64,000 nucleotides of DNA from Candidatus Tayloriibacteriota bacterium. Lineage in GTDB: Bacteria > Patescibacteriota > Minisyncoccia > Phycocordibacterales > PALSA-1337. This document shows, piece by piece, positions 27,010-47,504 of this stretch (within the stretch, counting starts at the first letter, position 1; each line of letters opens with the position of its first letter). The notes under the pieces were generated by a model. It was given only the letters and a program-made list of their open reading frames with translations, had not been told where the DNA came from and did no database searches. The stretch covers positions 7,967 to 71,966 of the forward strand of contig JAQBRD010000026.1 in assembly GCA_028286665.1 (NCBI GenBank), in the 5' to 3' direction. The position numbers and the translations under genes are program-made.

Positions 27010-28266
27010 GTGAAGATTCCGATCGCCATAACTTCCTGCATCATTGCCGCTGCGCTCGGTGCAGCCTTTTTCGTGATCCGCACGCCATTTTCCTACAATG
27101 TCTTCGATGATCCGCACAAGGACACCGCTGCTACCTCGACCAGCGGCTTCGTCGTGACTCATATCAAGACTCCTCAGCAGGTGAAGGGCATATATATGTC
27201 AGGCTGGGCAGCGGGAAGCCCGAAGCTTTTTCCGAAAGTCCTCGATGTCATCGAAACAACCGAGGTCAACTCGGTCGTGCTCGACATCAAGGATTACAGC
27301 GGCCGCATCAGCTTCCTCGTCGGCGATGATTCGCCCCTCAAGGCCATCGGCTCTCCTGAAAATCGCATTCCCGATATCAAGCAATTCCTCGCGCGCCTTC
27401 ACGACAAGGGCATCTATGTCATCGGCCGCGTCTCGACATTCCAAGATCCGTATTTCGTGAAGCTGCATCCCGAGTACGCCGTGAAGACGAAGGCCGGCGC
27501 AGTCTGGCAGGATCGCCATGGCATCAAATGGCTCGATGCAGGAGCTGAACCGGTGTGGAATTATTTCGTGACCATCGCGAAGGAGTCATATGCGGTCGGT
27601 TTCGATGAGATCCAATTCGACTATATCCGCTTTCCGACGGACGGAAACATGCGGGATATTTCTTTCACGTATGGCGGAAATCGCAAGAAAGCCGATGTGC
27701 TCAATGATTTTTTCGCATACGTCGATCAGCATCTCAGGAAGGAAGAGCATATTCCGATCTCTGCGGATTTCTTCGGACTCGTGACGACGAGCAATGACGA
27801 TCTCGGCATCGGCCAGGTGCTCGAGAACGGCCTCGCGCATTTCGATTATGTCTCGCCGATGGTCTATCCGTCGCATTATCCGCTCAACTACAACGGCTGG
27901 CCGGATCCGAACAGGAAGCCGTATGACCTCATCCATTATGTTCTCTCGAAGGGCATGGCTCGCGCTGTCGCCATGAATGCTCCTGCGATAGTCGCCACCT
28001 CGACCGCCACGACAACTTCAGCGCGCAAAGTTCCTTCCATAGCGTTTGCTAACGCTTCAGCGATTCTCGCGGCTGCGTCTTCGACGATGAAGATAAGTCC
28101 GCTCCAGATTCGCCCATGGCTCCAGGATTTCAGCATACGCGGCGTCACGTATACTCCGGACATGGTCCGTGCGCAGATCCAGGCGACGTACGACGTCGGC
28201 CTCGACAGCTGGCTCATCTGGAATGCCTCGAATATCTATACGAAAGAAGCATTTTTGAAAGAATAG
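27010..28266 (+). CDS. Membrane-anchored TIM-barrel glycoside-hydrolase-like protein (DUF4015-like). GTG start.
   Basis: N-terminal TM, then VKGIYMSGWAAGS...VVLDIKDYSGRISF...GIYVIGRVSTFQDPYF...GFDEIQFDYIRFP, which resembles the putative glycosyl-hydrolase DUF4015 family. Confidence 0.5.
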   Translation: MKIPIAITSCIIAAALGAAFFVIRTPFSYNVFDDPHKDTAATSTSGFVVTHIKTPQQVKGIYMSGWAAGSPKLFPKVLDVIETTEVNSVVLDIKDYSGRISFLVGDDSPLKAIGSPENRIPDIKQFLARLHDKGIYVIGRVSTFQDPYFVKLHPEYAVKTKAGAVWQDRHGIKWLDAGAEPVWNYFVTIAKESYAVGFDEIQFDYIRFPTDGNMRDISFTYGGNRKKADVLNDFFAYVDQHLRKEEHIPISADFFGLVTTSNDDLGIGQVLENGLAHFDYVSPMVYPSHYPLNYNGWPDPNRKPYDLIHYVLSKGMARAVAMNAPAIVATSTATTTSARKVPSIAFANASAILAAASSTMKISPLQIRPWLQDFSIRGVTYTPDMVRAQIQATYDVGLDSWLIWNASNIYTKEAFLKE

Positions 28267-28275
28267 TAGTATCCT

Positions 28276-29700
28276 ATGCATATGAATCCGACACTCCCGC
28301 AGAACCCGGCAGATGCTCCAGTCCCGAATGTTCCGACTATCTTCATCATCTTCGGCGTGACCGGAGATCTCGCCGGACGCAAGCTCCTTCCGTCGCTCCT
28401 CAGCCTCTATGTGAAGAAGCAGCTTCCGAGCAAATTCGCCATCGTCGGCTTCTCGCGCAGGCCTTTCACCCGCGAGGAATTCCGCCAGCTCATGCGCGAC
28501 AACATGAAGATCAAGCATGGCCAATTCCGCGAAGAAGACGTGAAGCACTTCCTCGATCACATGTCATATGAGCAGGGCAATTTCGATATTCCTGAAGCAT
28601 ATGATCGCCTCGCAGAAAAGCTCGATCTGATCGATAAAGGCTGGAAGCAGTGCTCGAACAAGCTCTTCCATCTCGCGACGCCGCCGTCTTTCTACGAAGT
28701 CATCCTCGACCGACTCGCAGAATCCGGCCTCACCATCCCATGCGGCGGAGACCTCGGCTGGACGCGCATCCTCATCGAGAAGCCATTCGGCAACGATACC
28801 GATACCGCCAAGCTCCTCGACAAGAAGCTTGCGAAGCTCTTCAAGGAAGAGCAGATCTTCCGCATCGACCACTATCTTGCGAAGGAGGCTCTGCAGAACA
28901 TCCTCACGTTCCGCTTTGCCAATTCGCTCTTCGAGCCGCTCTGGAATCGCGACTTCGTCGACAAGGTCCACATCAAGCTCTTCGAGAAGATCGACATCGA
29001 AGACCGCGGTCCGCTCTACGACAATGTCGGCGCATTGAAAGACGTCGGACAGAACCACATGCTGCAGATGCTCGCGCTCATCGCCATGGAGAAGCCGGCC
29101 TCATTCGAAGCCGGCCCCATCCGCAAGGAACGCGTGAAGGCGCTCTCGAAGCTCCGCCAGATCACTGCGCGCACCGTTTCAGCTACCTGCGTCCGAGGAC
29201 AATATGAAGGCTATATGAAGGAACGCGGCGTTCGGCCGGATTCTCAGACCGAGACGTTCTTCCGCATCGAAGCCCACGTCGACAATGCCCGCTGGAAGGG
29301 CGTGCCATTCTTCCTCGAGTCAGGCAAGGCGATGTTCGAATCCCGCGTCGAGATCGACATGTATTTCAGCGCAGAGGACAGCGACATCGAGCGCCAGAAT
29401 GTCCTCACATTCCGCATCCAGCCGGACGAAGGCATCAAGATCCGCTTCTGGGTGAAGACTCCTGGCTATTCGAATGAAGTCGAGCCGAAGACCATGAAAT
29501 TCCGCTACAGCGAGATGACTGATACCGCGGCCCTGCCCGACGCATACGAGCGAGTTCTTCATGACGCCGTCGTCGGAGACCAGACGCTCTTCGCCGATAC
29601 CGACGAGGTGCTCGCCGCATGGAAATTCATCACGCCGATCATGAACGTCTGGCGCTCCATTCCGCTCACGTTCTACAAGAAGGGGGCGAAGGAGGTCTAA
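28276..29700 (+). CDS. zwf: Glucose-6-phosphate 1-dehydrogenase.
   Basis: NADP-binding IFGVTGDLAGRKLLPSL, active-site RIDHYLAKE, and EKPFGND. Confidence 0.9.
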   Translation: MHMNPTLPQNPADAPVPNVPTIFIIFGVTGDLAGRKLLPSLLSLYVKKQLPSKFAIVGFSRRPFTREEFRQLMRDNMKIKHGQFREEDVKHFLDHMSYEQGNFDIPEAYDRLAEKLDLIDKGWKQCSNKLFHLATPPSFYEVILDRLAESGLTIPCGGDLGWTRILIEKPFGNDTDTAKLLDKKLAKLFKEEQIFRIDHYLAKEALQNILTFRFANSLFEPLWNRDFVDKVHIKLFEKIDIEDRGPLYDNVGALKDVGQNHMLQMLALIAMEKPASFEAGPIRKERVKALSKLRQITARTVSATCVRGQYEGYMKERGVRPDSQTETFFRIEAHVDNARWKGVPFFLESGKAMFESRVEIDMYFSAEDSDIERQNVLTFRIQPDEGIKIRFWVKTPGYSNEVEPKTMKFRYSEMTDTAALPDAYERVLHDAVVGDQTLFADTDEVLAAWKFITPIMNVWRSIPLTFYKKGAKEV

Positions 29701-29769: not shown

Positions 29770-30129
29770 ATGATAGCAGTATTTTTACTAATTCCGATTT
29801 TTATTGTTTTTTCTATATTGCGATACAGGAGGATTTCCATCGGTACAAATCTCGCTTCCAAAATTGCCGATCAAAATTCAGAGCAATTCAAAGCAGTTAA
29901 GAATGCCGTTTCAAGTACGGGATTCAGGCAAGGGATCAATTTAAGGACAGCTTTTCTTTCAGAGGATGATATCCTTAAATTCCCTCCAGAAATCCGGGCT
30001 AATGTCAGAAAGGCGAGGGTTTTTGACAGAGCGACGGTCGGCATGATGCTAATTTTTCTTATCCCAATCTTCCTGATCGCTTTTTCAATATTAAGCAAGT
30101 TTATTTACTTTAGTCAGAATTTGCGATAA
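29770..30129 (+). CDS. Small membrane protein in an AT-rich islet.
   Basis: 119 aa with two TM segments. Local AT content is clearly higher than in flanking genes. Confidence 0.3.
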   Translation: MIAVFLLIPIFIVFSILRYRRISIGTNLASKIADQNSEQFKAVKNAVSSTGFRQGINLRTAFLSEDDILKFPPEIRANVRKARVFDRATVGMMLIFLIPIFLIAFSILSKFIYFSQNLR

Positions 30130-30141
30130 CCTACATGAACT

Positions 30142-30410: not shown

Positions 30411-30815
30411 ATGGATAATACGAAATCTAGGTTTTGGAAGGTTGGAATGATAATCCTTTTCTATGCAGTCTTTGCTTTTGTGGGAAGCTTCGCAATAGGC
30501 TTTATAGAAGGAAGCCTAAGATCTGCAGGTGTTGCGAATGTGAATGGTCCCGTGTTGCTTTTTGCGTATGTGATCGTTAGTCTGCTTGCGGGTATATACG
30601 GCATATATAGGGGAATAAAATTCGTTTCAAAAAAATCAACGATCGACAGTAAGGATAGGAATCTGACGATAATATGGTTCGCAGTGCTGGAAGTCGCCCT
30701 CATCATCTTGAGCTTGAAATCCATCACTATTTTCCCGGCAAACCTCTCGATACTAATAGTTACTGGCGCAGCAACTTTTTTCCTTTTTCAAAAAGCTCTT
30801 GCAAAAAAGGCATAA
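30411..30815 (+). CDS. Four-TM small membrane protein.
   Basis: 134 aa with hydrophobic helices throughout. Confidence 0.35.
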   Translation: MDNTKSRFWKVGMIILFYAVFAFVGSFAIGFIEGSLRSAGVANVNGPVLLFAYVIVSLLAGIYGIYRGIKFVSKKSTIDSKDRNLTIIWFAVLEVALIILSLKSITIFPANLSILIVTGAATFFLFQKALAKKA

Positions 30816-30869: not shown

Positions 30870-31625
30870 ATGAAAAATAAAATCATCCTTCGTCGCTTCG
30901 CATACGCATGCATTGTCATTGTCGCCGTAGCGGCAATCATCAGCACTGTGCATCGCATCGGGACAAGAGAGCCTAAGCCGCGCACGATCATCGTCACGGT
31001 CATTCCGGGTTCGACGATCAACAGCATAGCGAAGCTCCTCAGCGGCTCCGGCCTTCCTTCGCGGGATTTTCTGAAGCTCTCGCTGCCGACATTCGATGCT
31101 TCGACGTCGAAATCTGCCGCTGGCTTCGGGCTTGAAGGATATCTGTATCCGGACACCTACAATTTCACATCAGGCGAAAGCGCGGAACAGATCATCCGGA
31201 CGATGACCGAGAATTTCGATGCGCACTTCCCGCAAGATTTGTTTGATCATCAGAAAGGGACCGTGCGCAGCAAGCGCGACATCGTGATCATGGCTTCGAT
31301 CCTTGAAAAGGAAGTTGCCACAGCAGAAGACAAGAGGATAGTTGCGGGAATCCTCTGGAAAAGGCTGGAGCATCGCTTGCCGCTGCAGGTGGACAGCACT
31401 ACGCATTATTTTTTAGCGCCGTCTGCGGGATTGGTATATAATACGTACCAAAGTGCAGGATTGCCTTTCGGACCGATAAGCGAACCGTCGTCCGAAAGCA
31501 TCAGGGCGGCCCTTGAGCCGACAGTAACGGATTATTGGTACTTTCTCAGTGATCGAAAAGGGAAAATATTCTATAGCCGGACTCTGAGCGAACACCTTAT
31601 CAACAAAGCTAAATATGTCGAATGA
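30870..31625 (+). CDS. Short MltG/YceG-like endolytic transglycosylase paralogue.
   Basis: N-terminal TM. YceG motifs EGYLYPDTYNF, RDIVIMASILEKEVATAEDKRIVAGILWKRL...LQVDSTTHY and GLPFGPISEPSSESIRAAL. Stop TGA (31623..31625) overlaps the A2M ATG (31622..31624) as ATGA. Confidence 0.6.
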   Translation: MKNKIILRRFAYACIVIVAVAAIISTVHRIGTREPKPRTIIVTVIPGSTINSIAKLLSGSGLPSRDFLKLSLPTFDASTSKSAAGFGLEGYLYPDTYNFTSGESAEQIIRTMTENFDAHFPQDLFDHQKGTVRSKRDIVIMASILEKEVATAEDKRIVAGILWKRLEHRLPLQVDSTTHYFLAPSAGLVYNTYQSAGLPFGPISEPSSESIRAALEPTVTDYWYFLSDRKGKIFYSRTLSEHLINKAKYVE

Positions 31626-34600
31626 CACTCAATAACAAAAGCATTTCCGTCATCGTAGCGTCGGTGCTGGTCATAGGAGCCGCTGTATTTTTCGGTCTCA
31701 TGCGTCCTTCAGGACATATTCCAGCTTTTGAATATCAGGCAGTGTATCGATTGGTTCCGGAGAATGTGTCGAAATCGGCAGCGATCAGGATCGAGCTGCC
31801 GGCCGGAGTGACAGGTCAGCCGATAGACGTCGCAAAGCAAGTGAGCTTCGAGCCGTCCATAAGCGGCCGCTGGCTGGAGGAAACAGAAGTCTCGGGAGCG
31901 GCAGCGACGTACGATGCTTCTCAGAAGAAGGCTGTCTTTTATTACAAGCCGAATAGTTCTCTCGATGTCGGAGTGCATCATGATGTCATTCTGGCAATGG
32001 CAGGCGATCAGTCGATCCGTTCCGATTTCATGACCGTCGCTGATCCTGAGGTGCGATCGATTCTTCCGCACGGAGATGATGAAGTCATGACGAATACGAA
32101 GATAAGCATCGTCTTCAATCGTCCGATGGTGCCGCTCAGCACGCTGGACCAGTTCGATTCTGGGAATCTGCCGGTGACTATCGCTCCGAAGACTCCCGGC
32201 CGATACAAATGGATAAGCACCAACACGCTCCAGTTCATACCGGAGGGCGGCCTCATCTCGTCTGCGCACTATACGGTGAAGGTCAATGCCGGCTTCCATT
32301 CTCTGGAAGGACTCGATGCGAAACCTGCCGAATCGTCTTTTACTACGATACATATGCGTTTCTGGTCGGACGGATCCGACAGCTTCGGCAACGATTCGAG
32401 GACGAATGCAGTCCGCGGATACAACCAGCCGCTGCTCGTCAGGTTCAATCAGGCGGTCGATCTGGACAAGACTAGGCCTTTCATCAAGGTGAGCGACAGC
32501 AACACTGGAGGAAGTTCCGTTCAATATACTCTGAAATATGCGTCCGCAACTGCTGACGGAAAGACGACCGAAGATCAGACGATGCTTGCGATATATCCTG
32601 CTGGCGGCGAACAGAGCAGCTGGGAGGCGGAACATCAGTACGTCGTGATTGTCGATCGCGCATTTCCGAAATCGGGAGGAGACATATCCGTGTCTGCGCC
32701 TGGCCGCTTCGCCTTCGTTATCGACAAGATATATTCAGGATTGGATGTCCTTTCGCCGAGAACCAATCAGGCAAGCCTTGATCGATTTGATCCGACAGGA
32801 CAGCTTGCGATCAATCTGTATGAGGCTATCGATCTTTCGAAAAGCAAAATCCGCGGGCCAGCGGTCGCTAAGGTCGAGTACGGCGAGAAGTGCCAGGAGA
32901 ATGTGACTCCTTGCGCCAAGGTTCCGGACAGGAAGCGGATACTCGTCTCATTTAATGCCGGTATTCTGCGTACTGGAGCTACGACCGAGGTGGTCTTGGA
33001 TAGCGTCATTTCTGATCTCGGCGCACAGCTTGCCTCGAAACCGCTGTCTATCAATCTCACGGTATATCAGCCGCTCTCGATCTACGGCATCACAGCCGAT
33101 GCGTATCTTGATAGGCTCGTGATCTGCTCCAATAACCCGATCGATACCGAAGGCAAGAGCAATACCATCTCCGCAGATCCTGGTTTCGTCGCGACTTCAT
33201 GGCAGAGGTCGTATCTCCATAGCGATTACGCGAGCAGCGCGGGCTGCGGAATCGGCAGGTTCGAAACGGCAGTATACGGATATTTGAACGGGCAGACGAA
33301 ATATCGCGCATCATTGAACGTGAAGGACATATTCGGCCAATCTGCCCAGGGCGCTTTTGACTTCGTCACGCGCCAGGTAACCAGTCGGGACTATCTGCTC
33401 CGCTCATATCAGGACGGAGAAGTGGTCACCGTTCCAGCCAAGACGAAGCTCACTTTCGCTGTCTCATATCTGCCTGAAGTCACTGCAACTGTCTGCAAGC
33501 TTTCGCCGTACGACCTGTATCGTCTCCGCAACGGCGAAAATCGCAATCCGAAGGAGCTCTGCAGCCAGGCGGTGCAGAAGACGATAGCTCTGAAGAATGA
33601 CGAATCTGGCCTGAAGGAATTCAGCGTGGATATCAAGGATTATTTCCCGCAGGCTGTCGGCAACTACGCGGTGCTGCTCTCAAGCCCGCTTATCACGGAG
33701 AACTCGGACTATTCGTGGAAATATTTCGATACGACCTACGTTTCAGTCACGAATCTGATCGTGACCGAAAAGCGCATCGATCCTCTCGATAACAATAATT
33801 ACGATTCGATCCGATTGACCGGCGAGCAGATAGGCAAGCTGCAGAATCTGTACTGGGTCATCGATGCTGCGACGCAGAAGCCGGTTTCTGGCGCATCCGT
33901 GAGTCTTTTCAAGAACGGCGCTGCAGTCGAAACCGCCACAACCGACGACAAGGGTCTGGCATTCCTCACTCCGGTAGCCGGAACCGAGATGGCCGTAGCG
34001 AGCTATGGAGCTGACGCTGCTGTCATCTCCGGATATTCGACAAAACTCAACTATGCCGATAATGCAGTGAATATCAAGAAGATGTATATCTACAGCGATA
34101 AGCCGATCTATCGTCCAGGACAGGAGGTCGATTTGAAGGGGCTGTATCGACTGGGGTATGACGGATATTACGAGCTGCCTCCGACGGAGCCGGTGACTTT
34201 GACCGTGATCGATTCCGGCGGCGATGTCGTGAAGACGGTGAATCTGACTCCGAATAATTTCGGCTCCATACATACGAGCTTCGTGCTGCCTGCGTCAGCC
34301 CGTCTCGGCAGTTATTCTGCGTGCGTGAAATACCAGTGCACGAACTTCAGCGTGCTTGATTATTCGCCGGCCGCTTTCAAGGTCACACTGCAGACGACCG
34401 ATAGCGAGTACTTCGTGGGGGACAAGCCCGAGGTAAATCTCGATGCTGCGTATTATTTCGGAGTTCCTGTTTCCAATGCGTCTGCCGAGTATCATGTGAG
34501 CACCCAGTATTATCATTTCGACAAGTACGCGAAGGAGTATTTCAATTTCAACAATCTATCCGACGATACGAGCAGCGAGGGATATTATTATGGCGATCGC

Positions 34601-37600
34601 TATGTCGGGGATGGGCATGCGGCTCTGGATGCAGGGGGTCACGGGATAATCAAGCCTGCGCTCGATGCGGCATCTCTCAAGGATCCGCAGGTAAGCAAGA
34701 TCGTCATCGTGGACGCTACGGTCAAGAATCAGCAAGGTCGGTCCGTCTCGTCTCAGAAGTCATTCGTGCTCAATGCTGCTCCGACCTATCTCGGCAGCAA
34801 GATCGAGGAGCCATTCGTAGCGTCAAGCGATGCGATCAAGCTCAAGCTCAAATCGGTGGATACGAGCGGCAACGGCAAATCTTCAGGCGCGAGCGCAGCG
34901 CTCTATCGGGTTTCGTGGGTGAACAACGGGGGCAATTCATCTGGAAGCGGTTCGGATTGGCAGCGGAAGCGCGAGCTCGTAAAGACCTTTTCCGTTACTA
35001 CGGACTCATCTGGCGACGGCGAGCTTTCATTGCCGCAGCAGACCGCAGGTCAGTACGAAGTGGACGTGACGTCACAGGGAACAGTCGGCAGCCGTTCGTG
35101 GTTCTATGTATACGGCGATCAGAATGTCTCGGTGCGCTCAAGCGATGACACCTCGCTCGAACTTGTGCCGAGCAGTGCGACCGTCAAGACGGGCGATACG
35201 GCCGAAATCCTGATCAAGGTTCCGGAAGGCGCTGGGAAGGCCTTGGTCACCATCGAGCGCGGCAAGGTCTTCAGCTATGAGGTGATGGATATCACCGGAA
35301 CGATGAATCATTTCAAATTCCCGGTGACGGACCAGTACTATCCGAATGTATATGTAAGCGTGACCGTCTATTCGCCGAACCGATCCGTGAGGTTCGGCAG
35401 CTATTCCTTCGCCGTCGACAGCGGTCAGAAGAAGCTCAATATCACCGTGCAATCAGATAAGAAGTTCTACAATCCCGGAGATCCAGTGACGCTCCAGCTC
35501 ACTGCAAAAGACGAGGCTGGTCAGCCTGTAGCGTCGGAAATATCGCTCGCAGTCGTCGATATGAGCGTCCTTGCGCTTCGAGGCAACCCGAAGAAGGATC
35601 CGCTCTCGTCATTCTACGGCCATGTCTACCTTACTGTCGCAACCTATTCGAATTTCAAGAATCTGCTGAAGCAGGTCGAAAGAAAATCAGAGGACGGCAA
35701 GGGCGGCAGCGGCGGCGATTCGAAGAATCAGAAGAGCAGAGGCATCTTCAAAGAAGTCGCTTTCTGGAAGCCTGACATCATCACTGATGCTGCTGGAAAT
35801 GCTACGGTTAAGTTCATGCTTCCTGACAATCTGACGACGTGGCAGGCGGAAGTCGTCGGCATCACCGCTGATACTCATGTAGGAGCAGCCTACAGCGAGT
35901 TCACGACGAACAAGACACTGATGGTCGTTCCGCTCAAGCCTCGTTTCGTCCTGCCAGGCGACCGGTTCTCACTCGGTGCGACCGTATTCAATAACAGCAA
36001 GGTTGATTTCAATGGCATAGTGAAGCTCAAGGCTGATTCGCTCGTTGTTTCGAAAGCATCTCTGGAGAAAAATGTCGGCATCAAAGCCGGAAGCTCTCAG
36101 ACAATATATTGGGACGCGGCAGTTCCATACTCCGTGCAGGCTGGAACGATGAGCTATTCGATTTCGGCTGGAGGTCAGGATCTGACTGACGCGGTCGACG
36201 ATGAGCTGATCGTGAATGAGAATACCGCATATGAAGTCACTGCGACAGCAGGACAGACAGATACGTCTGCTCGCGAAGCGCTGTACGTGCCTTCTACGGT
36301 CATTCCTGGACAAGGAGGCCTCACGCTCAAGAGTTCGGCGACATTGGCCGTATATCTGGGAGACGCTCTCAAATATATGCTGGATTATCCGTATGAGTGC
36401 ACGGAGCAGATATCAAGCCGCATCGAGACGTTGGCACTCATGAAGAATGCAGGAGCTCTTGTCGATGTTCAAAAGAAGAAAGACGCTGACAAGATGGTAT
36501 TGTCCGGCCTCCAGTCGATATATGATCGTCAGAATCCTGACGGAGGCTTCAAGCTCTGGCCAGAAAGCCGAACCTCGAGCTACTGGGGAACTTTGGAAGC
36601 CATCAAGGCCTTCGATGTGCTGCAGAGATCCGGCTACTCGATAGATGCATCAGTCTGGGATAAGAGCGCAGCGTACGTGCACGATCAGTACTTCGCGCAA
36701 AATATCAATCGCGTCTTTCTCGATCCTGTCGACATGGCCGCGGCTTTGTTTACGAGACCTCGATACGTCGGACAGGAGGATGTGCGCCAGGCATTCGAGC
36801 AGGCGGCGCAAAATGCGATGAAAGATCCGAAAATTCCTAACGGCAAGCTCATCACGCTGAGCCAGATCATGCATCGGTATCAGCTCATGCCGTCACTCCA
36901 GGGCAAGACAGACCTCATGCTCGAGAACCGCATCGTCGTGGATTCTCGCGGCAGCTTCCTCGATATCGGGACGTCCGATTCATATGCTGATACCGCTATC
37001 AGCAATACCGCGCGCTTCATAAGCCTCTTGTCGGAGAACAAGCAGTCGAATGTCGAGCTGCCGAATCTCCTGCGCTGGCTCACGAGATCGAGGTCCAAAG
37101 ACGGCGCTTGGGGGTCGACGGAGAATACCTTGGCTGTCGTACAGGCCTTCACCAGCTATCTGAAATGGCAGCCAGAGACATCCGCGACATTCACTCTGGA
37201 CACCAGCCTGAACGGGACTCAGATCGATCATTTCGATTTCAAACCCGACACTATCCTGACCCAGCTCTCAAAGATCATACCGATGGCCGCCCTGCATTCA
37301 GGAGCTTTGAACACGGTTTCATTCGCGAAATCATCAGTCAAAGGCACCGATGTCGGAAAGATCTATTACGATATGAGCTTCAAGTATTATCTGCCGGCAG
37401 GCACGCTCGGTCCTCGTGATGAAGGCTTCGCGATACAGAGGAATTTCTACGCCTTGTCGGACAAGGACGGAGTGAAGCCGATGCTGAAAGCGAAAGTGGG
37501 CGATGTCATGCGCGAGCACATCGAGATCACGGTGCCAGCGACTCGAAATCAGGTCGCTCTCGAGGACTTCATACCTGCGGGCATGGAAATCGTCGATACG

Positions 37601-37864
37601 AGTCTTGCGACTGAAGACAAGACGCTCGACCAGGCCGATGCTACCGTCAAAAATCCGCAGCTCTGGCCTGATCACAAGGAGTGGCGCGACGATCGCGCGT
37701 TCCTGTACTTCGATCAGCTGTCTCCAGGAACGTACCAGTTCGACTATCTCGTTCGAGCTCTTGTCCCGGGAACCTATACGCAGCTGCCCGCGAACGTATC
37801 AGAGATGTATGTGCCGGAGAACTTCGGCCGAAGCGGTGCAGGCCTATTTACTATCGAGCAGTAA
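31622..37864 (+). CDS. Giant alpha-2-macroglobulin-family thioester-containing protein, N-terminally TM-anchored (2080 aa).
   Basis: YfhM/ECAM-like N-terminal MG domain (ISIVFNRPMVPL...GRYKWISTNTLQFIPEGGL...YTVKVNAGF). A2M region (FKEVAFWKPDIITDAAGNATVKFMLPDNLTTWQAEVVGIT). Thioester motif DYPYECTEQ (Cys codon at 36398). Alpha-helical TED region (GGFKLWPE...SYWGT). N-terminal TM VIVASVLVIGAAVFFGLM. Confidence 0.85.
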   Translation: MTLNNKSISVIVASVLVIGAAVFFGLMRPSGHIPAFEYQAVYRLVPENVSKSAAIRIELPAGVTGQPIDVAKQVSFEPSISGRWLEETEVSGAAATYDASQKKAVFYYKPNSSLDVGVHHDVILAMAGDQSIRSDFMTVADPEVRSILPHGDDEVMTNTKISIVFNRPMVPLSTLDQFDSGNLPVTIAPKTPGRYKWISTNTLQFIPEGGLISSAHYTVKVNAGFHSLEGLDAKPAESSFTTIHMRFWSDGSDSFGNDSRTNAVRGYNQPLLVRFNQAVDLDKTRPFIKVSDSNTGGSSVQYTLKYASATADGKTTEDQTMLAIYPAGGEQSSWEAEHQYVVIVDRAFPKSGGDISVSAPGRFAFVIDKIYSGLDVLSPRTNQASLDRFDPTGQLAINLYEAIDLSKSKIRGPAVAKVEYGEKCQENVTPCAKVPDRKRILVSFNAGILRTGATTEVVLDSVISDLGAQLASKPLSINLTVYQPLSIYGITADAYLDRLVICSNNPIDTEGKSNTISADPGFVATSWQRSYLHSDYASSAGCGIGRFETAVYGYLNGQTKYRASLNVKDIFGQSAQGAFDFVTRQVTSRDYLLRSYQDGEVVTVPAKTKLTFAVSYLPEVTATVCKLSPYDLYRLRNGENRNPKELCSQAVQKTIALKNDESGLKEFSVDIKDYFPQAVGNYAVLLSSPLITENSDYSWKYFDTTYVSVTNLIVTEKRIDPLDNNNYDSIRLTGEQIGKLQNLYWVIDAATQKPVSGASVSLFKNGAAVETATTDDKGLAFLTPVAGTEMAVASYGADAAVISGYSTKLNYADNAVNIKKMYIYSDKPIYRPGQEVDLKGLYRLGYDGYYELPPTEPVTLTVIDSGGDVVKTVNLTPNNFGSIHTSFVLPASARLGSYSACVKYQCTNFSVLDYSPAAFKVTLQTTDSEYFVGDKPEVNLDAAYYFGVPVSNASAEYHVSTQYYHFDKYAKEYFNFNNLSDDTSSEGYYYGDRYVGDGHAALDAGGHGIIKPALDAASLKDPQVSKIVIVDATVKNQQGRSVSSQKSFVLNAAPTYLGSKIEEPFVASSDAIKLKLKSVDTSGNGKSSGASAALYRVSWVNNGGNSSGSGSDWQRKRELVKTFSVTTDSSGDGELSLPQQTAGQYEVDVTSQGTVGSRSWFYVYGDQNVSVRSSDDTSLELVPSSATVKTGDTAEILIKVPEGAGKALVTIERGKVFSYEVMDITGTMNHFKFPVTDQYYPNVYVSVTVYSPNRSVRFGSYSFAVDSGQKKLNITVQSDKKFYNPGDPVTLQLTAKDEAGQPVASEISLAVVDMSVLALRGNPKKDPLSSFYGHVYLTVATYSNFKNLLKQVERKSEDGKGGSGGDSKNQKSRGIFKEVAFWKPDIITDAAGNATVKFMLPDNLTTWQAEVVGITADTHVGAAYSEFTTNKTLMVVPLKPRFVLPGDRFSLGATVFNNSKVDFNGIVKLKADSLVVSKASLEKNVGIKAGSSQTIYWDAAVPYSVQAGTMSYSISAGGQDLTDAVDDELIVNENTAYEVTATAGQTDTSAREALYVPSTVIPGQGGLTLKSSATLAVYLGDALKYMLDYPYECTEQISSRIETLALMKNAGALVDVQKKKDADKMVLSGLQSIYDRQNPDGGFKLWPESRTSSYWGTLEAIKAFDVLQRSGYSIDASVWDKSAAYVHDQYFAQNINRVFLDPVDMAAALFTRPRYVGQEDVRQAFEQAAQNAMKDPKIPNGKLITLSQIMHRYQLMPSLQGKTDLMLENRIVVDSRGSFLDIGTSDSYADTAISNTARFISLLSENKQSNVELPNLLRWLTRSRSKDGAWGSTENTLAVVQAFTSYLKWQPETSATFTLDTSLNGTQIDHFDFKPDTILTQLSKIIPMAALHSGALNTVSFAKSSVKGTDVGKIYYDMSFKYYLPAGTLGPRDEGFAIQRNFYALSDKDGVKPMLKAKVGDVMREHIEITVPATRNQVALEDFIPAGMEIVDTSLATEDKTLDQADATVKNPQLWPDHKEWRDDRAFLYFDQLSPGTYQFDYLVRALVPGTYTQLPANVSEMYVPENFGRSGAGLFTIEQ

Positions 37865-39724
37865 TGTCCGAGCGGTCTCAGGCTCTTCCGCGGAGTTGAT
37901 ATCGTCGAACGAGAAGGGCGCATGCCGATCGTATGCTGTCTGCTGCATGAGCTGCATCACCTTGCTCCAGATCTCTCCCGCTCCGCTCTGTCCCGACAGG
38001 GACTTGGTCGGCTTGTTGTCGGAATTTCCGACCCATACGCCGACGACGTAATCCGCCGTGTATCCGACTACCAAGCTATCTCGATAGTCATCCGAGGTTC
38101 CGGTCTTGAGCGCATAGTTCTGATAGGGCAGATTGAGGTCGCTCACATAGCCGAATTGATCGATGCCGATATATCGGTCAGACAGGATCTTGGTTATGAG
38201 CTCCGTATATTGCGGATCGATGACCTTCTTTTCTTCTCCCGGGAAGAAAAGCCTGTTGATATTCTGATCGGAAAAAAGCCGCACCGGCTCGAGCTTTCCC
38301 TTATTCGGGAAGATGCTGTAGAAGTGAACGAGCTGCGGCAGCGTCATGTCGATCGTGCCGAGCGCTGCGCCGAGCTGGTGATCGTGGACTTTCTTGATAT
38401 CGGCATAGCCGAGCTCGCCGAGAAAATTGCCGAACGCGTCGAGTCCGACGAACCTAAGCGTCTTGATCGCCGGAATGTTGATGCTGTTCGCCAGGGCATA
38501 TGCTGCAGTGATGCGCCCGTGATATTTCATATCATAATTCTTCGGATACAAGGTTCTGCCGTCGAAAGTCACATATCTGTATTCCGCATCATCGATGAGG
38601 GAATCAGGACGCGCGCCCATCTCGAAAGCTTTGGCGTAGACGAATGGCTTTATGGTCGAAGCGACCTGCCTCGGCTTGGTGAGCATGTTGATCTGCTGGC
38701 CGAAATCTTCCGCAGCAGGATCGGCGCTTCCGATCATGCTGAGTATCTCGTTGGAAGGCAGCTTCATGATGATGACTGCCATGTTGTGCGCATCGCGGCT
38801 CGCCAGAGACGGCTGCGCATCTTCGACGATGGCACGCACTTTATCCGCAAGCTCTTTGTCGATGGAAACCCGCACGGTCTTCATGGGCAAGTCCTTGGAC
38901 GCATATGATCGCAGTTCGAAACTGTCTTTCTGCGCCAGAAACTTTTTGAGATTCCTTGATGCGGTCTCCGGCGATACGAAGCCGTCTTTCGCTACTCGGA
39001 TATTCAAAGCTGAAGCCAGTCGCATCGCAGAGTCAATATTGTTTCCGAGAAGGGGATTGTTGTAGCTCGGACTGCCGAGCGAGGAGAGGAGCTGGAAAAT
39101 CTCCGCTTCAGACAGGCTGTCCGCCGACTTGGAGAAGTACGCTTGGCTGGCCGTCTCGACACCCTGGATATGGTTTCCGAAGTAGACGGTATTGCAGTAT
39201 TTGAGCAGCACGTCCTTCTTTCCCAGGAAAAGGTCGAGCGGCAGTACCGACAGCAGCTCGGTGGATTTGTTCATGATCGTCCGGTCATTTTCCTGTTCGA
39301 GCAGGAGCTTGGTGAGCTGCTGCTCGATCGTGCTCGCACCCCGATGGCTGCCGATTCCTGCTTTGGACAGCATGAGTTCGCCGATGCTCACCGGATTCAC
39401 TCCCGGATGCAGATAAAAGAATCGATCTTCCTTTCGGAGCAGCAGCTTTGAGAATATCTCCGGCGTGCTGGTGGCATAGAGCGCATAATTGCCTTTCGCA
39501 TTCGGCATGAGCATGAGCAAGCGGCCATTCCTGTCTATGAAGCTGACTGATTGGTTTTGATCATAGAGCTGCACGAGCTTCTGCCTGTCGTATGCGCCGT
39601 ATATGAGGAAAGCGCATATGATGACGATGCTTCCCAAACAGATGGTTGTGCGCGCGCGGCGGAGTTTCATATTTGTCAGCGAATTTTTGGTTTTTTCAGT
39701 ATACCTCGAAATGAAAGCTTTCAA
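37844..39724 (-). CDS. pbpC: Class A penicillin-binding protein (glycosyltransferase GT51 + transpeptidase), PbpC-like.
   Basis: GT51 motifs EDRFYLHPGVNP, GASTIEQQLTK and RKLKE. Transpeptidase motifs STIKPF (SxxK), SIN (SxN) and KTGTS. N-terminal TM anchor. The 3' end overlaps the A2M 3' end by 21 nt (convergent). Confidence 0.8.
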   Translation of the reverse strand: MKAFISRYTEKTKNSLTNMKLRRARTTICLGSIVIICAFLIYGAYDRQKLVQLYDQNQSVSFIDRNGRLLMLMPNAKGNYALYATSTPEIFSKLLLRKEDRFFYLHPGVNPVSIGELMLSKAGIGSHRGASTIEQQLTKLLLEQENDRTIMNKSTELLSVLPLDLFLGKKDVLLKYCNTVYFGNHIQGVETASQAYFSKSADSLSEAEIFQLLSSLGSPSYNNPLLGNNIDSAMRLASALNIRVAKDGFVSPETASRNLKKFLAQKDSFELRSYASKDLPMKTVRVSIDKELADKVRAIVEDAQPSLASRDAHNMAVIIMKLPSNEILSMIGSADPAAEDFGQQINMLTKPRQVASTIKPFVYAKAFEMGARPDSLIDDAEYRYVTFDGRTLYPKNYDMKYHGRITAAYALANSINIPAIKTLRFVGLDAFGNFLGELGYADIKKVHDHQLGAALGTIDMTLPQLVHFYSIFPNKGKLEPVRLFSDQNINRLFFPGEEKKVIDPQYTELITKILSDRYIGIDQFGYVSDLNLPYQNYALKTGTSDDYRDSLVVGYTADYVVGVWVGNSDNKPTKSLSGQSGAGEIWSKVMQLMQQTAYDRHAPFSFDDINSAEEPETARTLLLDSK

Positions 39725-41896: not shown

Positions 41897-42949
41897 ATGA
41901 CTATGTCTAACACCCAACTCAAACCAAAGCAGACGACGAAGCGACTTCTTGCGGTACTCCCAGATCGAGCGCGAGACGTGCTCATCAATCGTTACGGCCT
42001 TGGGAAGAGTTCGGAAAAGATGACGCTCGACGCGATCGGCAAGCTCTATGGCATCACTCGAGAGCGCGTCCGACAGATCGAGAACTACGCGATCAACAAT
42101 ATCCGCAAGTCGGATGTCTATAAATCCGAGAAGGCCGCATTCCAGGAAATGGAAGACATGCTCCACTCGCTCGGAGGCATCGTCGTCGAGGAAGATTTCC
42201 TCGGACATGTCGCAAAGGACGTCTCTACTCAGAATCACATCCACTTCCTCCTTGTCGTCGGCGATTCTTTCAAGAAGCACAAGGAAGACGAAGAATTCAA
42301 GCACCGATGGCATGTGAACGAATCTCTCGCGAAGCAGGTCGAAGACTCGCTCCGGAAGCTCTACGGATCCCTTTCAGACCAGGACCTCCTTCCTGAATCA
42401 GAGATGGTCAACCGATTCCTCGAGCATCTCGAAGGCGTCGCTGAGAAATACAAGAATCAGGAGATCATGAAGCGATGGCTCGGCATCTCGAAGCATATCG
42501 GCAAGAACGCCATCGGCGAATGGGGAGTCGCTCATTCTCCGAACATCAAGACGAAGGGCATGCGGGATTATGCATTCCTCGTCATCCGAAAGCACGGATC
42601 CCCGATCCACTTCCGAGAAGTCGCCAAGCAGATCAGCGTCGTCTTCAAGAAGAAGGCGCATGTCGCCACGACGCATAACGAGCTCATCAAGGATCCTCGA
42701 TTCGTCCTCGTCGGCCGCGGACTCTACGCGCTCGCAGAATGGGGATACATGTCAGGCGTCGTGAAGGACGTCATCAAGAAGATCGTCGACAAGCACGGCC
42801 CGCTCACTAAGGAAGAGATCATCGAGAAAGTCCTCAAGGAGCGATACGTGAAGGAGAACACGATCATGGTCAACCTCCAGAATCAGAAGCATTTCAAGAA
42901 AGACAAGGAAGGCCGATATCATCTCTCAGACGAAAAGACGGCCGCATAG
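41897..42949 (+). CDS. DNA-binding protein combining a sigma-70 region-4-like HTH with a C-terminal HARE-HTH (RNAP delta-subunit-like) domain.
   Basis: N-terminal VLINRYGLGKSSEKMTLDAIGKLYGITRERVRQIENYAINNIRK (sigma r4 signature ITRERVRQIE). C-terminal FLVIRKHGSPIHFREVAKQI...HNELIKDPRFVLVGRGLYALAEWGY, which is a HARE-HTH-like motif. Confidence 0.5.
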   Translation: MTMSNTQLKPKQTTKRLLAVLPDRARDVLINRYGLGKSSEKMTLDAIGKLYGITRERVRQIENYAINNIRKSDVYKSEKAAFQEMEDMLHSLGGIVVEEDFLGHVAKDVSTQNHIHFLLVVGDSFKKHKEDEEFKHRWHVNESLAKQVEDSLRKLYGSLSDQDLLPESEMVNRFLEHLEGVAEKYKNQEIMKRWLGISKHIGKNAIGEWGVAHSPNIKTKGMRDYAFLVIRKHGSPIHFREVAKQISVVFKKKAHVATTHNELIKDPRFVLVGRGLYALAEWGYMSGVVKDVIKKIVDKHGPLTKEEIIEKVLKERYVKENTIMVNLQNQKHFKKDKEGRYHLSDEKTAA

Positions 42950-42990: not shown

Positions 42991-44301
42991 ATGTTTGAAG
43001 AGTTTATTATTTGGTCCCCGATCTGGCTCACCGCGCTCGTAGGCTCCATCATCGGGCTGGTCTATTTCATCCCGACTGTCGCGCGCGAGTATGCCGGCTT
43101 ATTCGAGCAGTCCATCGCGATGCTCCTCATCACCATGCCGTATTGGCTGCCGGTTCTCGGCATCATCATCTTCTGGAATACATGGGTGGTCTTCGTCCGC
43201 GGACGCTACTTGGCAGGCATCAAATGGTCGCTGCTCGAATTGAAGCTTCCGCTCGAGATCACGAAAACCCCGCTCGCCATGGAGACGTTCCTCATGTCAT
43301 TGCATCAGGGAGGAAGCGAGGCGACGTTCATCGACCGCTGGTGGAAAGGCCAGACTCGCGGCATCTTCTCGCTCGAGATCATCTCCGTCGAAGGGCAGAT
43401 CAAGTTCCTCATCTATACGCAGACGAAGTTCCGCGGCATGATCGAAGCCGCCCTCTATGCGCAGTATCCCGACATCGAGATCCATGAAGCAGTCGATTAT
43501 ACGCACTCGGTCCATTTCGACCCGAAGGAAAGCGACATGTACGTCATCGACTACAAATTCACCGCGCCGGATCCGTATCCGATCAATACGTACGTTGAAT
43601 ACGGCATCGACGATACGAATGTCGATGAGGAGAACAAGATCGATCCGATCAACCACATGCTCGAATTCATGGGCTCGATCGGAACGAATCAGCAGTGCTG
43701 GTTCCAGCTCATCATGCGCCTGCACAAGGACGATCAGCATAAGCCGGGAACGCTCTTCGGCAAGTGGGACAAATTCAAGGATGACGCCAAGAAGGAGATC
43801 GAGAAGATCCGAGCGAGCGCCGTGCAGAAGACCGGCGACGACAAGATCAAGTTCCCGAATCCGACGAAGGGCGAGCAGGAGCGCATCGCCGCGATCGAAC
43901 GGAAGCTCTCGAAGCTTCCGTTCGACGTGGGACTGCGCGGCATCTATTTCGCGAAGAAGGAATTCTTCAATGGCGGAAATATCGGATCGCTCCGCACGAT
44001 GCTCCGCGCGTACAGCACCGGCCATCTGAACGGCTTCAAGCCGATGAACTGGCTCAACGACTTCGACTACCCATGGCAGGATTACAAGGATATGCGAAAG
44101 AATGCCCTCAAGCGCGAAGGCCTCGAGGCATACAAGCGTCGTTCTTATTTTTACCCTCCATTCGTCGGAAAATTGAATCTCGTCATGAACACCGAGGAGA
44201 TCGCTTCCATCTTCCATCTTCCTGGCCAGGTCGCGAAGACGCCGACATTGCCGCGACTTCCTTCGAAACGTTCGGAAGCTCCTGGAAATCTTCCAATATA
44301 A
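42991..44301 (+). CDS. Membrane protein (two N-terminal TM helices plus a ~330-aa cytoplasmic domain), hypothetical.
   Basis: TM helices IWLTALVGSIIGLVYFIP and LLITMPYWLPVLGIIIFWNTWVVFV. No motif recognised in the soluble domain. Separated from the downstream mltG by 6 nt. Confidence 0.45.
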   Translation: MFEEFIIWSPIWLTALVGSIIGLVYFIPTVAREYAGLFEQSIAMLLITMPYWLPVLGIIIFWNTWVVFVRGRYLAGIKWSLLELKLPLEITKTPLAMETFLMSLHQGGSEATFIDRWWKGQTRGIFSLEIISVEGQIKFLIYTQTKFRGMIEAALYAQYPDIEIHEAVDYTHSVHFDPKESDMYVIDYKFTAPDPYPINTYVEYGIDDTNVDEENKIDPINHMLEFMGSIGTNQQCWFQLIMRLHKDDQHKPGTLFGKWDKFKDDAKKEIEKIRASAVQKTGDDKIKFPNPTKGEQERIAAIERKLSKLPFDVGLRGIYFAKKEFFNGGNIGSLRTMLRAYSTGHLNGFKPMNWLNDFDYPWQDYKDMRKNALKREGLEAYKRRSYFYPPFVGKLNLVMNTEEIASIFHLPGQVAKTPTLPRLPSKRSEAPGNLPI

Positions 44302-44307: not shown

Positions 44308-45285
44308 ATGCGTTTTCGAACCTTTATTTGCATAGTGTTGGTGATCGTCGTGCTCGCATTCGCAGCAGTCGCTGCTTTCGCAGTGCTCTCATCTTCGCCG
44401 AGTGATTTTCCGATAGGCGCTACCGTCAATATTCCGAGGAATGCGACGATTTCCGAAATCGCAACTTCGCTCAAAGAACGCTCATTCATCCGATCGGAGG
44501 ATGCCTTCAAGGTTGCCGCGCTCATGCTCGGAGGCAGCAACGGGCTCCTGTCGGGCGACTATCTCTTCGATCGTCCGACGAATGTCTGGAAGCTCGTCGA
44601 ACGCATCACGAAAGGCGATCAGGGGATCGCTCGGGTGAAAGTGACATTTCCTGAAGGCATCACGGTGAAGGAGATGGGGAATATCGTCGCGTCGCAGGTG
44701 AGCGGGTTCGATGCTGCGGGATTCGTCGCGCGCGCATCGACATCGGAAGGATACCTCTTTCCTGATACGTATTATTTCTTCAGCAATGCCAAGCCGCTGG
44801 ACGTCGTTCGAGTCATCGCCGCCGAATTCGATCAGAAATATGCGACGTTGCTGAGCGATCCTGCCATCGTCGCCGGGACGATGTATGGCAAGACGAAACG
44901 CGAGATCGTCACCATGGCTTCGATCCTCGAAGACGAAGTGAAGAGCGCCCAGGACCGCTCGATCGTTTCAGGGATTCTCTGGAAGCGACTGGCAAAGGGC
45001 ATGCCGCTTCAGGTCGATGCTCCGTTTGGCTATATTCTCGGCAAATCCACCGAGGATCTGACGCTCGATGATCTCAAGACGAATTCTCCATACAATACCT
45101 ATTTGAATAAAGGCTTGCCGCCGACGCCGATCAACAACCCCGGCCTCGAAGCGCTCCGCGCGACGATGATGCCGACATCCACGCCGTACTGGTTCTATCT
45201 TTCTGATAAGAAGGGCGCGATCCATTATGCGAAGACATATGCGGAGCATCTCGCGAATAAAGAAAACTATCTCAACGGTAAATAG
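44308..45285 (+). CDS. mltG: Endolytic murein transglycosylase MltG (YceG family).
   Basis: N-terminal TM. YceG motifs EGYLFPDTYYF, REIVTMASILEDEVKSAQDRSIVSGILWKRLAKGMPLQVDAPFGY and GLPPTPINNPGLEALRA. Confidence 0.8.
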   Translation: MRFRTFICIVLVIVVLAFAAVAAFAVLSSSPSDFPIGATVNIPRNATISEIATSLKERSFIRSEDAFKVAALMLGGSNGLLSGDYLFDRPTNVWKLVERITKGDQGIARVKVTFPEGITVKEMGNIVASQVSGFDAAGFVARASTSEGYLFPDTYYFFSNAKPLDVVRVIAAEFDQKYATLLSDPAIVAGTMYGKTKREIVTMASILEDEVKSAQDRSIVSGILWKRLAKGMPLQVDAPFGYILGKSTEDLTLDDLKTNSPYNTYLNKGLPPTPINNPGLEALRATMMPTSTPYWFYLSDKKGAIHYAKTYAEHLANKENYLNGK

Positions 45286-46589: not shown

Positions 46590-47504
46590 ATGAATCATCT
46601 CCTCTATGTCACCAAAGCCGACGGAAGCAGGGAGCTCTTCGAAGAAGAGAAGCTTGCGGAGTCCCTCAAGCGCGTCGGCGGCAGCGATGCCCTGATCGAC
46701 GAGATCGTCGAGAAGATCGAGGCTGAAATGAACAGCAGCATGACGACCGGCGAGATCTATCAGCATGCGTTCGAGCTTCTTCGCAAGCATGAAGCGCCAG
46801 TCGCGGTGAAATATTCGCTTCGCCGCGCGCTTTCCGAACTCGGTCCCGAAGGATTCCCGTTCGAGAAATACATCGCGGAGCTTTTCCGCGCGCAGGGCTA
46901 TCAGGCGCTCACTGATCAGATGGTCATGGGCGCATGCGTGCCGCATGAAGTAGACGTCGTCGCCTGGAACGAGCAGAAGCTCGTCATGGTCGAAGCGAAA
47001 TTCCATAACGAATTCGGCCTCAAGTCCGATGTGAAAGTAGCTCTTTACGTGAAGGCGCGTTTCGATGATATCAAAGGCAACATGTTCGACTATGGCGGCA
47101 TCCATCGGACGATGACTGAGGGATGGCTCGTGACGAATACGAAATTCACCGATCAGGCTATCAAGTACGGCGAGTGCAAAGGCCTGAAGATGATCGGATG
47201 GAATTACCCGCATCATGGCAGCCTCCAGCACATCATCGAGAGCTCGGGCCTCCATCCGCTCACCTGCCTCGTTTCCGTCAGCAACGTGCACAAGAAGCTG
47301 CTCATCGCCAAAGGCGTCGTCCTCTGCCGTGATCTGAAGCAGCGTCCGGAATTATTGAAGCAGGTCGGCCTCGACAATCTCCGGATCGCCCAGATCATCG
47401 AGGAGATCGATTCTGTCTGCGGGGTCAGCTTGGCTCCGCAGCAGTCGCCATCCGAATCCAGTTCGCAAGCCCCGTTTCCTGCAAGCACTCTGATATCAGC
47501 ATAA
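46590..47504 (+). CDS. ATP-cone domain fused to an Mrr-cat-type restriction-endonuclease-fold (PD-(D/E)xK) domain.
   Basis: ATP-cone VTKADGSRELFEEEKLAESLKRVG...IYQHAFELLRKHEAPVAVKY. Mrr_cat-like FEKYIAELFRAQGYQALTDQMVMGACVPHEVDVVAWNEQKLVMVEAKFH...GWLVTNTKFTDQAIKY with the D...E-x-K arrangement. Confidence 0.55.
   Translation: MNHLLYVTKADGSRELFEEEKLAESLKRVGGSDALIDEIVEKIEAEMNSSMTTGEIYQHAFELLRKHEAPVAVKYSLRRALSELGPEGFPFEKYIAELFRAQGYQALTDQMVMGACVPHEVDVVAWNEQKLVMVEAKFHNEFGLKSDVKVALYVKARFDDIKGNMFDYGGIHRTMTEGWLVTNTKFTDQAIKYGECKGLKMIGWNYPHHGSLQHIIESSGLHPLTCLVSVSNVHKKLLIAKGVVLCRDLKQRPELLKQVGLDNLRIAQIIEEIDSVCGVSLAPQQSPSESSSQAPFPASTLISA

Follow-up and report, generated by a model that had tools for sequence, protein, structure and literature searches.

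Three adjacent genes of a 64,000-nt stretch of contig JAQBRD010000026.1 (the whole stretch is referred to as the window) encode a lytic transglycosylase of the MltG/YceG family, an alpha-2-macroglobulin (A2M) of 2080 amino acids and, on the opposite strand, a class A penicillin-binding protein (PBP). With a probability of about 0.6, this locus represents a module for envelope defence and repair of the type I A2M/PBP1c kind, in a version that is used by Patescibacteria (candidate phyla radiation, CPR), is adapted to a monoderm envelope and is extended by a dedicated MltG. The 2080-aa protein is a membrane-anchored, thioester-containing, type I-like A2M. Its convergent arrangement with the PBP gene is the usual one in Patescibacteria, and MltG is a facultative third member, which is present at around 30% of the loci. 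The components and the pairing of A2M with PBP are already known; as a system, the locus is not of a new kind.

The open reading frames (ORFs) of the initial annotation, the ATGA overlap between mltG and the A2M gene, the 21-nt overlap between the A2M and PBP genes and the PBP motifs were reproduced exactly. The host is a Candidatus Taylorbacteria bacterium known from a metagenome-assembled genome (MAG): the 2080-aa A2M is identical to the deposited protein MDB5259521.1 ("hypothetical protein JWO73_729") from such a MAG, and the assumption of a CPR-type host was therefore correct. Around 98 clusters of A2M homologues with a length of 2050-2270 aa and an identity of 30-59% cover 95-100% of the 2080-aa query, and all named members belong to the Patescibacteria. 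The long reading frame is thus genuine, and a chimera or frameshift artefact is ruled out by the full-length homologues and the identical deposited protein.

Conservation of the A2M-PBP pair and of MltG

One genome per species was scanned for A2M loci. Relatives of the A2M are encoded in 504 genomes, and the best 80 loci, all of which come from Patescibacteria MAGs of many lineages, were taken. Neighbouring ORFs were analysed for the 77 loci, including the window, at which the A2M ORF is complete. The downstream side of A2M could be evaluated at 65 loci, and at 46 of them the first downstream ORF is a PBP in convergent orientation. A PBP is found within three ORFs downstream at 9 loci and as first downstream ORF in co-directional orientation at 2, while the remaining 8 lack a downstream PBP, three of which have one upstream. 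The convergent orientation of the PBP gene, which had been noticed in the window, is thus confirmed and conserved across loci; the module is atypical relative to that of proteobacteria, as the initial annotation stated, but not within the Patescibacteria. At a small number of Patescibacteria loci, the gene for the PBP lies directly downstream of the A2M gene on the same strand (L023 with a 4-nt overlap, L025, and L029 with a 26-nt overlap). Both orientations, including the classical operon form, therefore exist within the CPR.

Upstream of A2M, 56 loci could be evaluated. MltG is encoded by the first upstream ORF on the same strand at 17 of these and within three ORFs at one. The triad predicted from the window does recur in related genomes, and it is complete in both closest relatives that were looked up singly (L085 and L086). 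Besides PBP and MltG, no conserved neighbour could be found among the 77 loci. Several further neighbours recur, which resemble an ABC ATPase and permease, an isoaspartate methyltransferase, deformylase, UvrA/C, TyrRS, ribosomal protein L10 and DJ-1; these were rejected as module genes, as they are restricted to sub-lineages and appear housekeeping-like by reading of their sequences without a library scan.

The 3' ends of the two convergent genes are strikingly close to each other, with a median stop-to-stop distance of 0.5 nt. Of 54 loci, 70% have a junction gap of no more than 4 nt, compared to 17% of 102 other convergent gene pairs from the same loci (Fisher's exact test, p ~4e-11, for loci that are phylogenetically related and ORF calls that are crude). 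In the window, the 21-nt overlap codes for LFTIEQ-stop at the end of A2M on the plus strand and for LLLDSK-stop at the end of the PBP on the minus strand, and each of the two stop codons, when reverse-complemented, reads as a Leu codon of the opposite gene. Within a Taylorbacteria-like clade (L001, L002, L003, L005, L008, L009, L062 and L085), this dual-coding overlap is conserved at the DNA level. An overlap of 21 nt was found in eight loci of the ORF survey and in L085, and one of 18 nt in L086.

A junction that is far tighter than the background bears on the question of whether the genes are linked without any joint function, that is, whether block acquisition or genome compaction has brought together three products that act independently, with PBP and MltG as housekeeping enzymes and the A2M as an inhibitor on its own. 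The genomes of the CPR are compact, and the control convergent pairs overlap not infrequently; furthermore, convergent genes form no operon, and MltG is missing from most loci. However, A2M and PBP are adjacent even in such distant lineages as the Taylor-, Falkow- and Magasanikbacteria, in which all other neighbours are different, and the same pairing is found in Escherichia coli and in another non-CPR bacterium. A further class A PBP, which is more distantly related (27-30% identity), is encoded at several A2M loci; this indicates that the linked PBP is a specialised paralogue rather than the housekeeping enzyme. Linkage without joint function is thus disfavoured and very improbable.

The anchored macroglobulin and its two partner enzymes

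The presence of macroglobulin (MG) and thioester domains (TED) beyond the thioester pentapeptide, which was expected from the initial annotation, could be established by Pfam searches. These identified Big_5 (residues 141-242), a weak bMG3 (743-816), MG2 (820-905), A2M_BRD, the bait-region domain (1179-1319), A2M (1380-1468), TED_complement (1582-1688) and bMG10 (1935-2066), while no NCBIfam model matched the protein. The best sequence matches in the PDB are the A2Ms of Salmonella (Sa-A2M) and E. coli (YfhM/ECAM) with E-values of ~1e-30, and residues 810-2067 align to ECAM residues 340-1603. The AlphaFold2 (AF2) model of residues 1100-2080 has a pLDDT of 82.5 and consists of beta-sandwich domains and a helical TED. 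In line with the proposed similarity to the ECAM fold, Foldseek searches with this model returned 4u48, 5a42 and 4ziq, which are structures of the Salmonella and E. coli A2Ms, as top matches (E 1e-45 to 1e-48); C3, C5, TEP1 and CD109 are also among the matches.

The thioester motif CTEQ (residues 1593-1596) is located within the TED_complement match, and the surrounding YPYECTEQ aligns with YPYGCLEQ of Sa-A2M (4u48). The "lock" tyrosine is present four residues before the thioester cysteine and matches Y1175 of Sa-A2M, which is replaced in the Y1175G lock mutant 4u4j. The family consensus at this site is YPYGCSEQ, and CxEQ is retained in 46 of 52 aligned homologues and in 67 of 75 species-level orthologues. 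It has been lost in the other eight orthologues (L004, L006, L042, L044, L052, L056, L068 and L079), which belong to at least three separate lineages. Between A2M_BRD and A2M lies a putative bait loop with a pLDDT of 27-37, the only long internal stretch of the 1100-2080 model with values below 50. It comprises a variable, indel-rich stretch followed by a conserved KGGxGG...K(K/R)RG motif and aligns with a Gly-rich segment of Salmonella A2M.

The N-terminal part of the protein sets it apart from its proteobacterial counterparts. No cysteine is present within the first 38 residues and no lipobox was found; the only N-terminal hydrophobic helix is formed by residues 6-26. A single N-terminal hydrophobic helix is found in 52 of 52 aligned family members and a lipobox in none of the 52, which bears out the assumption of a transmembrane (TM) signal-anchor in place of a lipobox. 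In many family members, the helix is preceded by a cytoplasmic tail of 20-100 aa. The AF2 model of residues 1-830 has a pLDDT of 86 and contains this helix, followed by an all-beta region of around seven sandwiches, whose boundaries were estimated from secondary structure and dips in pLDDT and not from coordinates. The extra length of the protein relative to the proteobacterial A2Ms was thus recognized correctly; however, it amounts to ~470 rather than ~430 residues, all of which lie N-terminal of MG2, as can be deduced from the alignment of residues 810-2067 with ECAM 340-1603. The best specific structural match of the N-terminal model is 4zjg (MG0-NIE-MG1 of ECAM; TM-score of 0.62 on the target), so the extension is modelled as about four Ig-like domains beyond these.

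The extension contains three Cys pairs (C424/C431, C502/C542 and C625/C647), which are invariant or nearly so. The A2M has nine cysteines; six of them would form the presumptive disulfides of the extension, and the others are C901, C906 and the thioester C1593. The conserved pairs fit an extracytoplasmic location of the stalk. The extension as a whole is rare: among 1.84 billion clusters at 50% identity, only ~96 contain it as a unit (E of 1e-30 or better), and almost all of these hold proteins of 2.0-2.4 kaa or fragments thereof. The most conserved part of the extension is Big_5 (residues 161-240), which is on par with the A2M core. A2Ms of 1.9-2.0 kaa with Big_5 also occur outside the CPR. 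The greater length of the stalk and the anchoring by a TM helix are plausible adaptations of the trap to an envelope that lacks a periplasm.

A long Ig-like stalk on a surface-anchored protein is also adhesin-like. By analogy with complement C3, the thioester-containing TEPs and the thioester-domain adhesins of Gram-positive bacteria, an activated thioester could form bonds with surface molecules of a host and thereby aid the attachment of an episymbiont. CPR bacteria are thought to be episymbionts, giant surface proteins have been implicated in host contact (PMC8080830), and the fold of the window A2M matches C3, C5, TEP1 and CD109, too. Nevertheless, the full architecture including the bait-region domain and MG10 best matches bacterial protease traps, a role in tethering leaves the linkage to a peptidoglycan synthase and MltG unexplained, and the loss of the thioester in eight orthologues would end covalent tethering. 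A function as covalent adhesin is therefore quite unlikely, although less so than a linkage without joint function.

The PBP contains a transglycosylase (Transgly, residues 85-226) and a transpeptidase domain (Transpeptidase, 315-590), and catalytic motifs of GT51 enzymes and acyl-serine transpeptidases are present, including STIEQQ in addition to those listed in Table 1. Its best NCBIfam match is TIGR02073 (PBP_1c, 363.7 bits), followed by PBP_1a_fam (289.6 bits) and PBP_1b (193.1 bits), and it shares 27% identity with E. coli PbpC (BLASTP, E 1e-47). It has one N-terminal TM helix. Translation more probably starts at the ATG at 39670 (codon 19), which yields a 608-aa protein beginning with MKLRR and the TM helix, than at the TTG at 39724, since relatives of 607-620 aa fit the shorter form better; the annotated ORF would thus be 18 residues too long. 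BiPBP_C, the C-terminal domain that is a hallmark of PBP1c, was detected in 24 of 60 A2M-linked PBP orthologues of the CPR, which have a length of ~700 aa (best E 3e-7), as well as in the PBP of the non-CPR locus L082.

MltG reaches 133 bits against TIGR00247 (cutoff 103.4) and consists of an N-terminal TM helix (residues ~10-27), one LysM-like subdomain and the catalytic domain. The N-terminal subdomain is absent: the protein covers only positions 68-275 of the 275 positions of the YceG profile, with the first ~67 missing. It aligns to the structures of MltG from Listeria monocytogenes (4iiw) and E. coli (2r1f), where MASILEKEVATAED of the window protein is aligned on MASIIEKETAVASE of E. coli (2r1f). 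The catalytic motif is intact, with MASILEKE matching MASIIEKE of 2r1f and SIIEKE of 4iiw; the first glutamate of EKE is presumably the catalytic E218 of MltG. Seventeen other A2M-linked MltGs have a length of 313-395 aa and have kept the N-terminal subdomain. A short MltG of 258 aa is also encoded in the closest relative L085, with the same 4-nt overlap onto A2M, and the short form and the overlap are therefore a lineage trait and not an error. The sequence at 31619..31628 is GAATGACAC, in which the stop codon of mltG and the start codon of the A2M gene share ATGA. In other loci with an upstream mltG, both genes are located on the same strand with a gap of 1-194 nt. The coupling of MltG to A2M, which had been proposed from the overlap, gains support from its recurrence in L085: both are probably translationally coupled, and mltG and the A2M gene would be co-transcribed.

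As a full-length MltG is encoded at 44308..45285, the A2M-linked MltG is an additional paralogue in this genome. Over the region that both have in common, the full-length protein and the short copy are 42% identical, and a neighbour-joining tree tentatively places the former outside the A2M-linked MltGs, with identities that are all ~40% and an outgroup sequence that is approximate. The gene for a 436-aa membrane protein without Pfam match (42991..44301, +) ends 7 nt before this second mltG.

Table 1. Positions of the genes, overlaps, domains and motifs within the window.
Feature	Position	Strand	Details and basis
MltG/YceG gene	30870..31625	+	251 aa; Pfam YceG E 1e-50, 173.3 bits (cutoff 32.4)
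Putative catalytic Glu codon of MltG, E146 in MASILEKE	31305..31307	+	alignment to 2r1f
ATGA overlap, MltG stop TGA/A2M start ATG	31622..31625	+	sequence
A2M gene	31622..37864	+	2080 aa; Pfam domains, thioester motif, AF2, Foldseek
Predicted signal-anchor helix, A2M residues 6-26	31637..31699	+	AF2 helix; best 19-residue Kyte-Doolittle window 2.67
Stalk of ~7 Ig/MG-like beta-sandwich domains, residues ~41-815, including Big_5 (141-242)	31742..34066	+	AF2
Putative bait loop, residues 1339-1370	35636..35731	+	AF2 disorder, model residues 240-271, between A2M_BRD and A2M
TED, alpha/alpha toroid, residues ~1575-1849	36344..37168	+	Pfam TED_complement; AF2 helical bundle, model residues 476-750
Thioester site YPYECTEQ, residues 1589-1596 (C1593, Q1596)	36386..36409	+	sequence
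Bacterial MG10, C-terminal	37424..37819	+	Pfam bMG10 E 4e-31, full profile
A2M/PBP 3' overlap, 21 nt, tail-to-tail, dual-coding	37844..37864	both	sequence
Class A PBP gene	37844..39724	-	626 aa from TTG 39724; Pfam Transgly and Transpeptidase
PBP motif KTGT	38096..38107	-	
PBP motif SIN	38477..38485	-	
PBP motif STIK	38648..38659	-	
PBP motif EDRFF	39416..39430	-	
Second, full-length MltG (context)	44308..45285	+	325 aa; Pfam YceG E 1e-71, profile 1-274; TIGR00247 197.7 bits

The remainder of the window contains the usual housekeeping genes of a small genome, including those for glucose-6-phosphate dehydrogenase, YchF, a Mur ligase, AlaRS, MnmA and peptidases. A putative glycosyl hydrolase with DUF4015 and the glucose-6-phosphate dehydrogenase are encoded upstream of the module (27010..29700, +); a homologue of the DUF4015 protein is also found upstream of A2M in L072, and at no other locus. 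Two small membrane ORFs upstream of mltG (29770..30129 and 30411..30815) have no counterparts in other A2M loci. Downstream, a 350-aa protein (41897..42949, +) combines Sigma70_r4 (residues 17-71) with HARE-HTH (222-282), which is an unusual architecture, and a 304-aa protein (46590..47504, +) consists of an ATP-cone fused to a restriction endonuclease-fold domain (Mrr_cat). Scans of the window for Rfam families and tRNAs yielded no matches.

Proposed function of the module

Type I bacterial A2Ms are protease traps that use a thioester. Their pairing with PBP1c was reportedly proposed by Budd et al. in 2004 to provide a periplasmic defence once the outer membrane has been breached; to our knowledge, it has never been given a mechanistic explanation. 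The three products of the window locus are predicted to be single-pass (type II) membrane proteins with the N-terminus inside and the bulk of the protein outside, and they would therefore co-reside at the external surface of the cytoplasmic membrane. The uncleaved signal-anchor helix would hold the A2M at the membrane, while the stalk of around seven Ig-like domains would carry the trap body into or through the cell wall. A foreign endopeptidase may then cleave the exposed, disordered bait loop (residues ~1339-1370), resulting in a conformational change that would allow the buried Cys1593-Gln1596 thioester to bind the protease covalently. The adjoining PBP1c-like bifunctional synthase would produce and cross-link fresh peptidoglycan at the site of damage, and MltG, co-transcribed with and probably translationally coupled to A2M, would trim or terminate the nascent glycan strands. 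Protease trapping, peptidoglycan repair and a physical or regulatory coupling of the three proteins are thus proposed as the joint task of the module.

A number of observations weigh against this interpretation. The hypothesis that A2M and PBP1c act in repair is still unproven, even in E. coli. As the A2M and PBP genes are convergent, they cannot be co-transcribed. The RNA of their junction folds less stably than shuffled sequences on both strands (z of +1.4 and +1.35), and a bidirectional terminator hairpin is accordingly absent; a promoter and terminator scan of positions 29600-41000 found fewer sites than in shuffled sequence and none at the gene junctions. The label "PbpC-like" used in the initial annotation is right in that PBP_1c is the best-scoring family, but the score of 363.7 bits is below the trusted cutoff of 494.2 bits and only positions 8-549 of the 728 profile positions are covered; furthermore, a Pfam scan detected no BiPBP_C (PF06832) in the window PBP and its clade of 607-640-aa proteins. 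MltG is missing upstream of A2M in ~70% of the loci, including those of the close relatives L001 and L003. The Gly-rich, basic motif of the putative bait loop is fairly conserved, and the loop is not wholly hypervariable. Lastly, the PBP neighbour has been kept in all eight thioester-less orthologues, and covalent trapping is therefore not needed for whatever maintains the linkage.

The last point could indicate that the A2M is mainly a damage sensor and regulator of the synthase and not an inhibitor. Cleavage of the bait in the anchored A2M would then activate or recruit the PBP1c-like synthase (and MltG), similar to the activation of PBP1a/1b by the Lpo lipoproteins. A partnership that is independent of covalent trapping would explain why the adjacency outlives the loss of the thioester, and ECAM has previously been proposed to interact directly with PBP1c (PMC3328433). 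The conservation of Big_5 (161-240) at the level of the A2M core would fit a protein-protein interface, but it can be explained equally well by folding or wall binding. Since the thioester is kept in 67 of 75 orthologues, covalent capture appears to be the main selected activity, and the sensor function is unlikely, though somewhat less so than the adhesin function discussed above.

Within the favoured defence-and-repair interpretation, the pairing outlasts both the inversion of orientation and the loss of the thioester in at least three lineages, which argues for a partnership of A2M and PBP at the protein level rather than for mere co-expression. In a more far-reaching version, the module would be a protease-triggered switch for wall repair peculiar to CPR bacteria without outer membrane, in which cleavage of the bait captures the enzyme and, via the conserved stalk, locally activates the PBP1c-like synthase and MltG, while antisense transcripts, overlapping at their 3' ends as a result of the conserved gene junction, would couple the expression of A2M and PBP; this combination is speculative and, as a whole, unlikely. 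The partnership of A2M and PBP is old and independent of a periplasm, since it is conserved across the Patescibacteria, for which the absence of an outer membrane is presumed. The locus thus sheds light on the long-standing A2M/PBP1c hypothesis and on the biology of the CPR envelope: the frequent addition of MltG is a testable clue that the termination of glycan strands may belong to the job of the module, and the A2M, a surface protein of very large size and wide distribution, has a biochemical activity that can be predicted. The module also bears on the survival of episymbionts beside hosts and competitors that secrete lytic enzymes.

Comparison with known systems

The window A2M shares the CxEQ thioester, the Tyr lock and the MG2-BRD-A2M-TED-MG10 core with E. 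coli YfhM/ECAM and Sa-A2M, for which, together with PBP1c, joint protease inhibition and wall repair have been hypothesised (PMC3328433, PMC5764988). The type I A2Ms of E. coli and Salmonella and the window A2M are held at the cytoplasmic membrane and adjoin a PBP1c-type bifunctional synthase. The systems differ, however, in the anchor, which is an uncleaved TM helix in the window A2M and a lipid on the lipobox cysteine in the type I A2Ms of E. coli and Salmonella; the lipoprotein box of ECAM has been described (PMC3328433). Compared to ECAM, the window A2M has ~470 more N-terminal residues, which are modelled as ~4 extra Ig-like domains and include the three conserved Cys pairs. The yfhM-pbpC genes of E. 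coli form a co-directional, abutting operon, whereas the window genes are convergent with overlapping 3' ends; in the non-CPR relative L082, a PBP1c with BiPBP_C is encoded adjacent and co-directional. The PBP of the window clade lacks BiPBP_C, unlike the PBP1c partner of type I A2Ms, and mltG is often added upstream of the CPR A2M, which is not the case for YfhM-PbpC of E. coli. CPR bacteria have been proposed to lack an outer membrane (bioRxiv 10.1101/2025.01.22.634366), and unlike E. coli and Salmonella, the host is hence thought to have no classical periplasm.

Type II A2Ms such as MagD of Pseudomonas aeruginosa and YfaS of E. coli, with the six-gene mag operon, are likewise large, inner membrane-associated traps with multiple MG domains. 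The loss of the thioester in a minority of the CPR orthologues resembles type II A2Ms, while the window A2M itself keeps CTEQ. No neighbours similar to magA-F are found by the window A2M, which is instead linked to a PBP, and PBP linkage is a hallmark of type I A2Ms (PMC5764988).

Within the CPR, giant membrane proteins with A2M domains have been described in the predator Vampirococcus lugosii, namely Vamp_6_203 (2368 aa) and Vamp_19_245 (1895 aa), and were proposed in one sentence to serve as a defence against host proteases (PMC8080830). The initial annotation had considered a role at the host interface or in self-protection as undescribed for this group; a defensive role had already been suggested in passing. 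This sentence is the sole mention of such A2M proteins in the CPR that was found in the searchable literature. No account of their distribution throughout the CPR, of the TM anchor, of the N-terminal extension specific to the family, of the convergent overlap and its conservation or of the recurrent MltG could be found there. The Vampirococcus account names neither a thioester nor a linkage to PBP or MltG, and its two proteins are candidate orthologues of the window A2M. One member of the A2M family (P0134) also has a length of 2368 aa and may correspond to Vamp_6_203.

The association of MltG with a synthase also has a counterpart in E. coli. MltG associates with peptidoglycan synthases and cleaves nascent glycan strands (PMC8135044). 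As in the case of E. coli MltG-PBP1b, a membrane-anchored transglycosylase of the YceG fold with an intact catalytic motif is found in the window beside a bifunctional peptidoglycan synthase. In contrast to E. coli MltG, the window protein is an extra paralogue, lacks the N-terminal subdomain and is encoded in a reading frame that overlaps the A2M gene.

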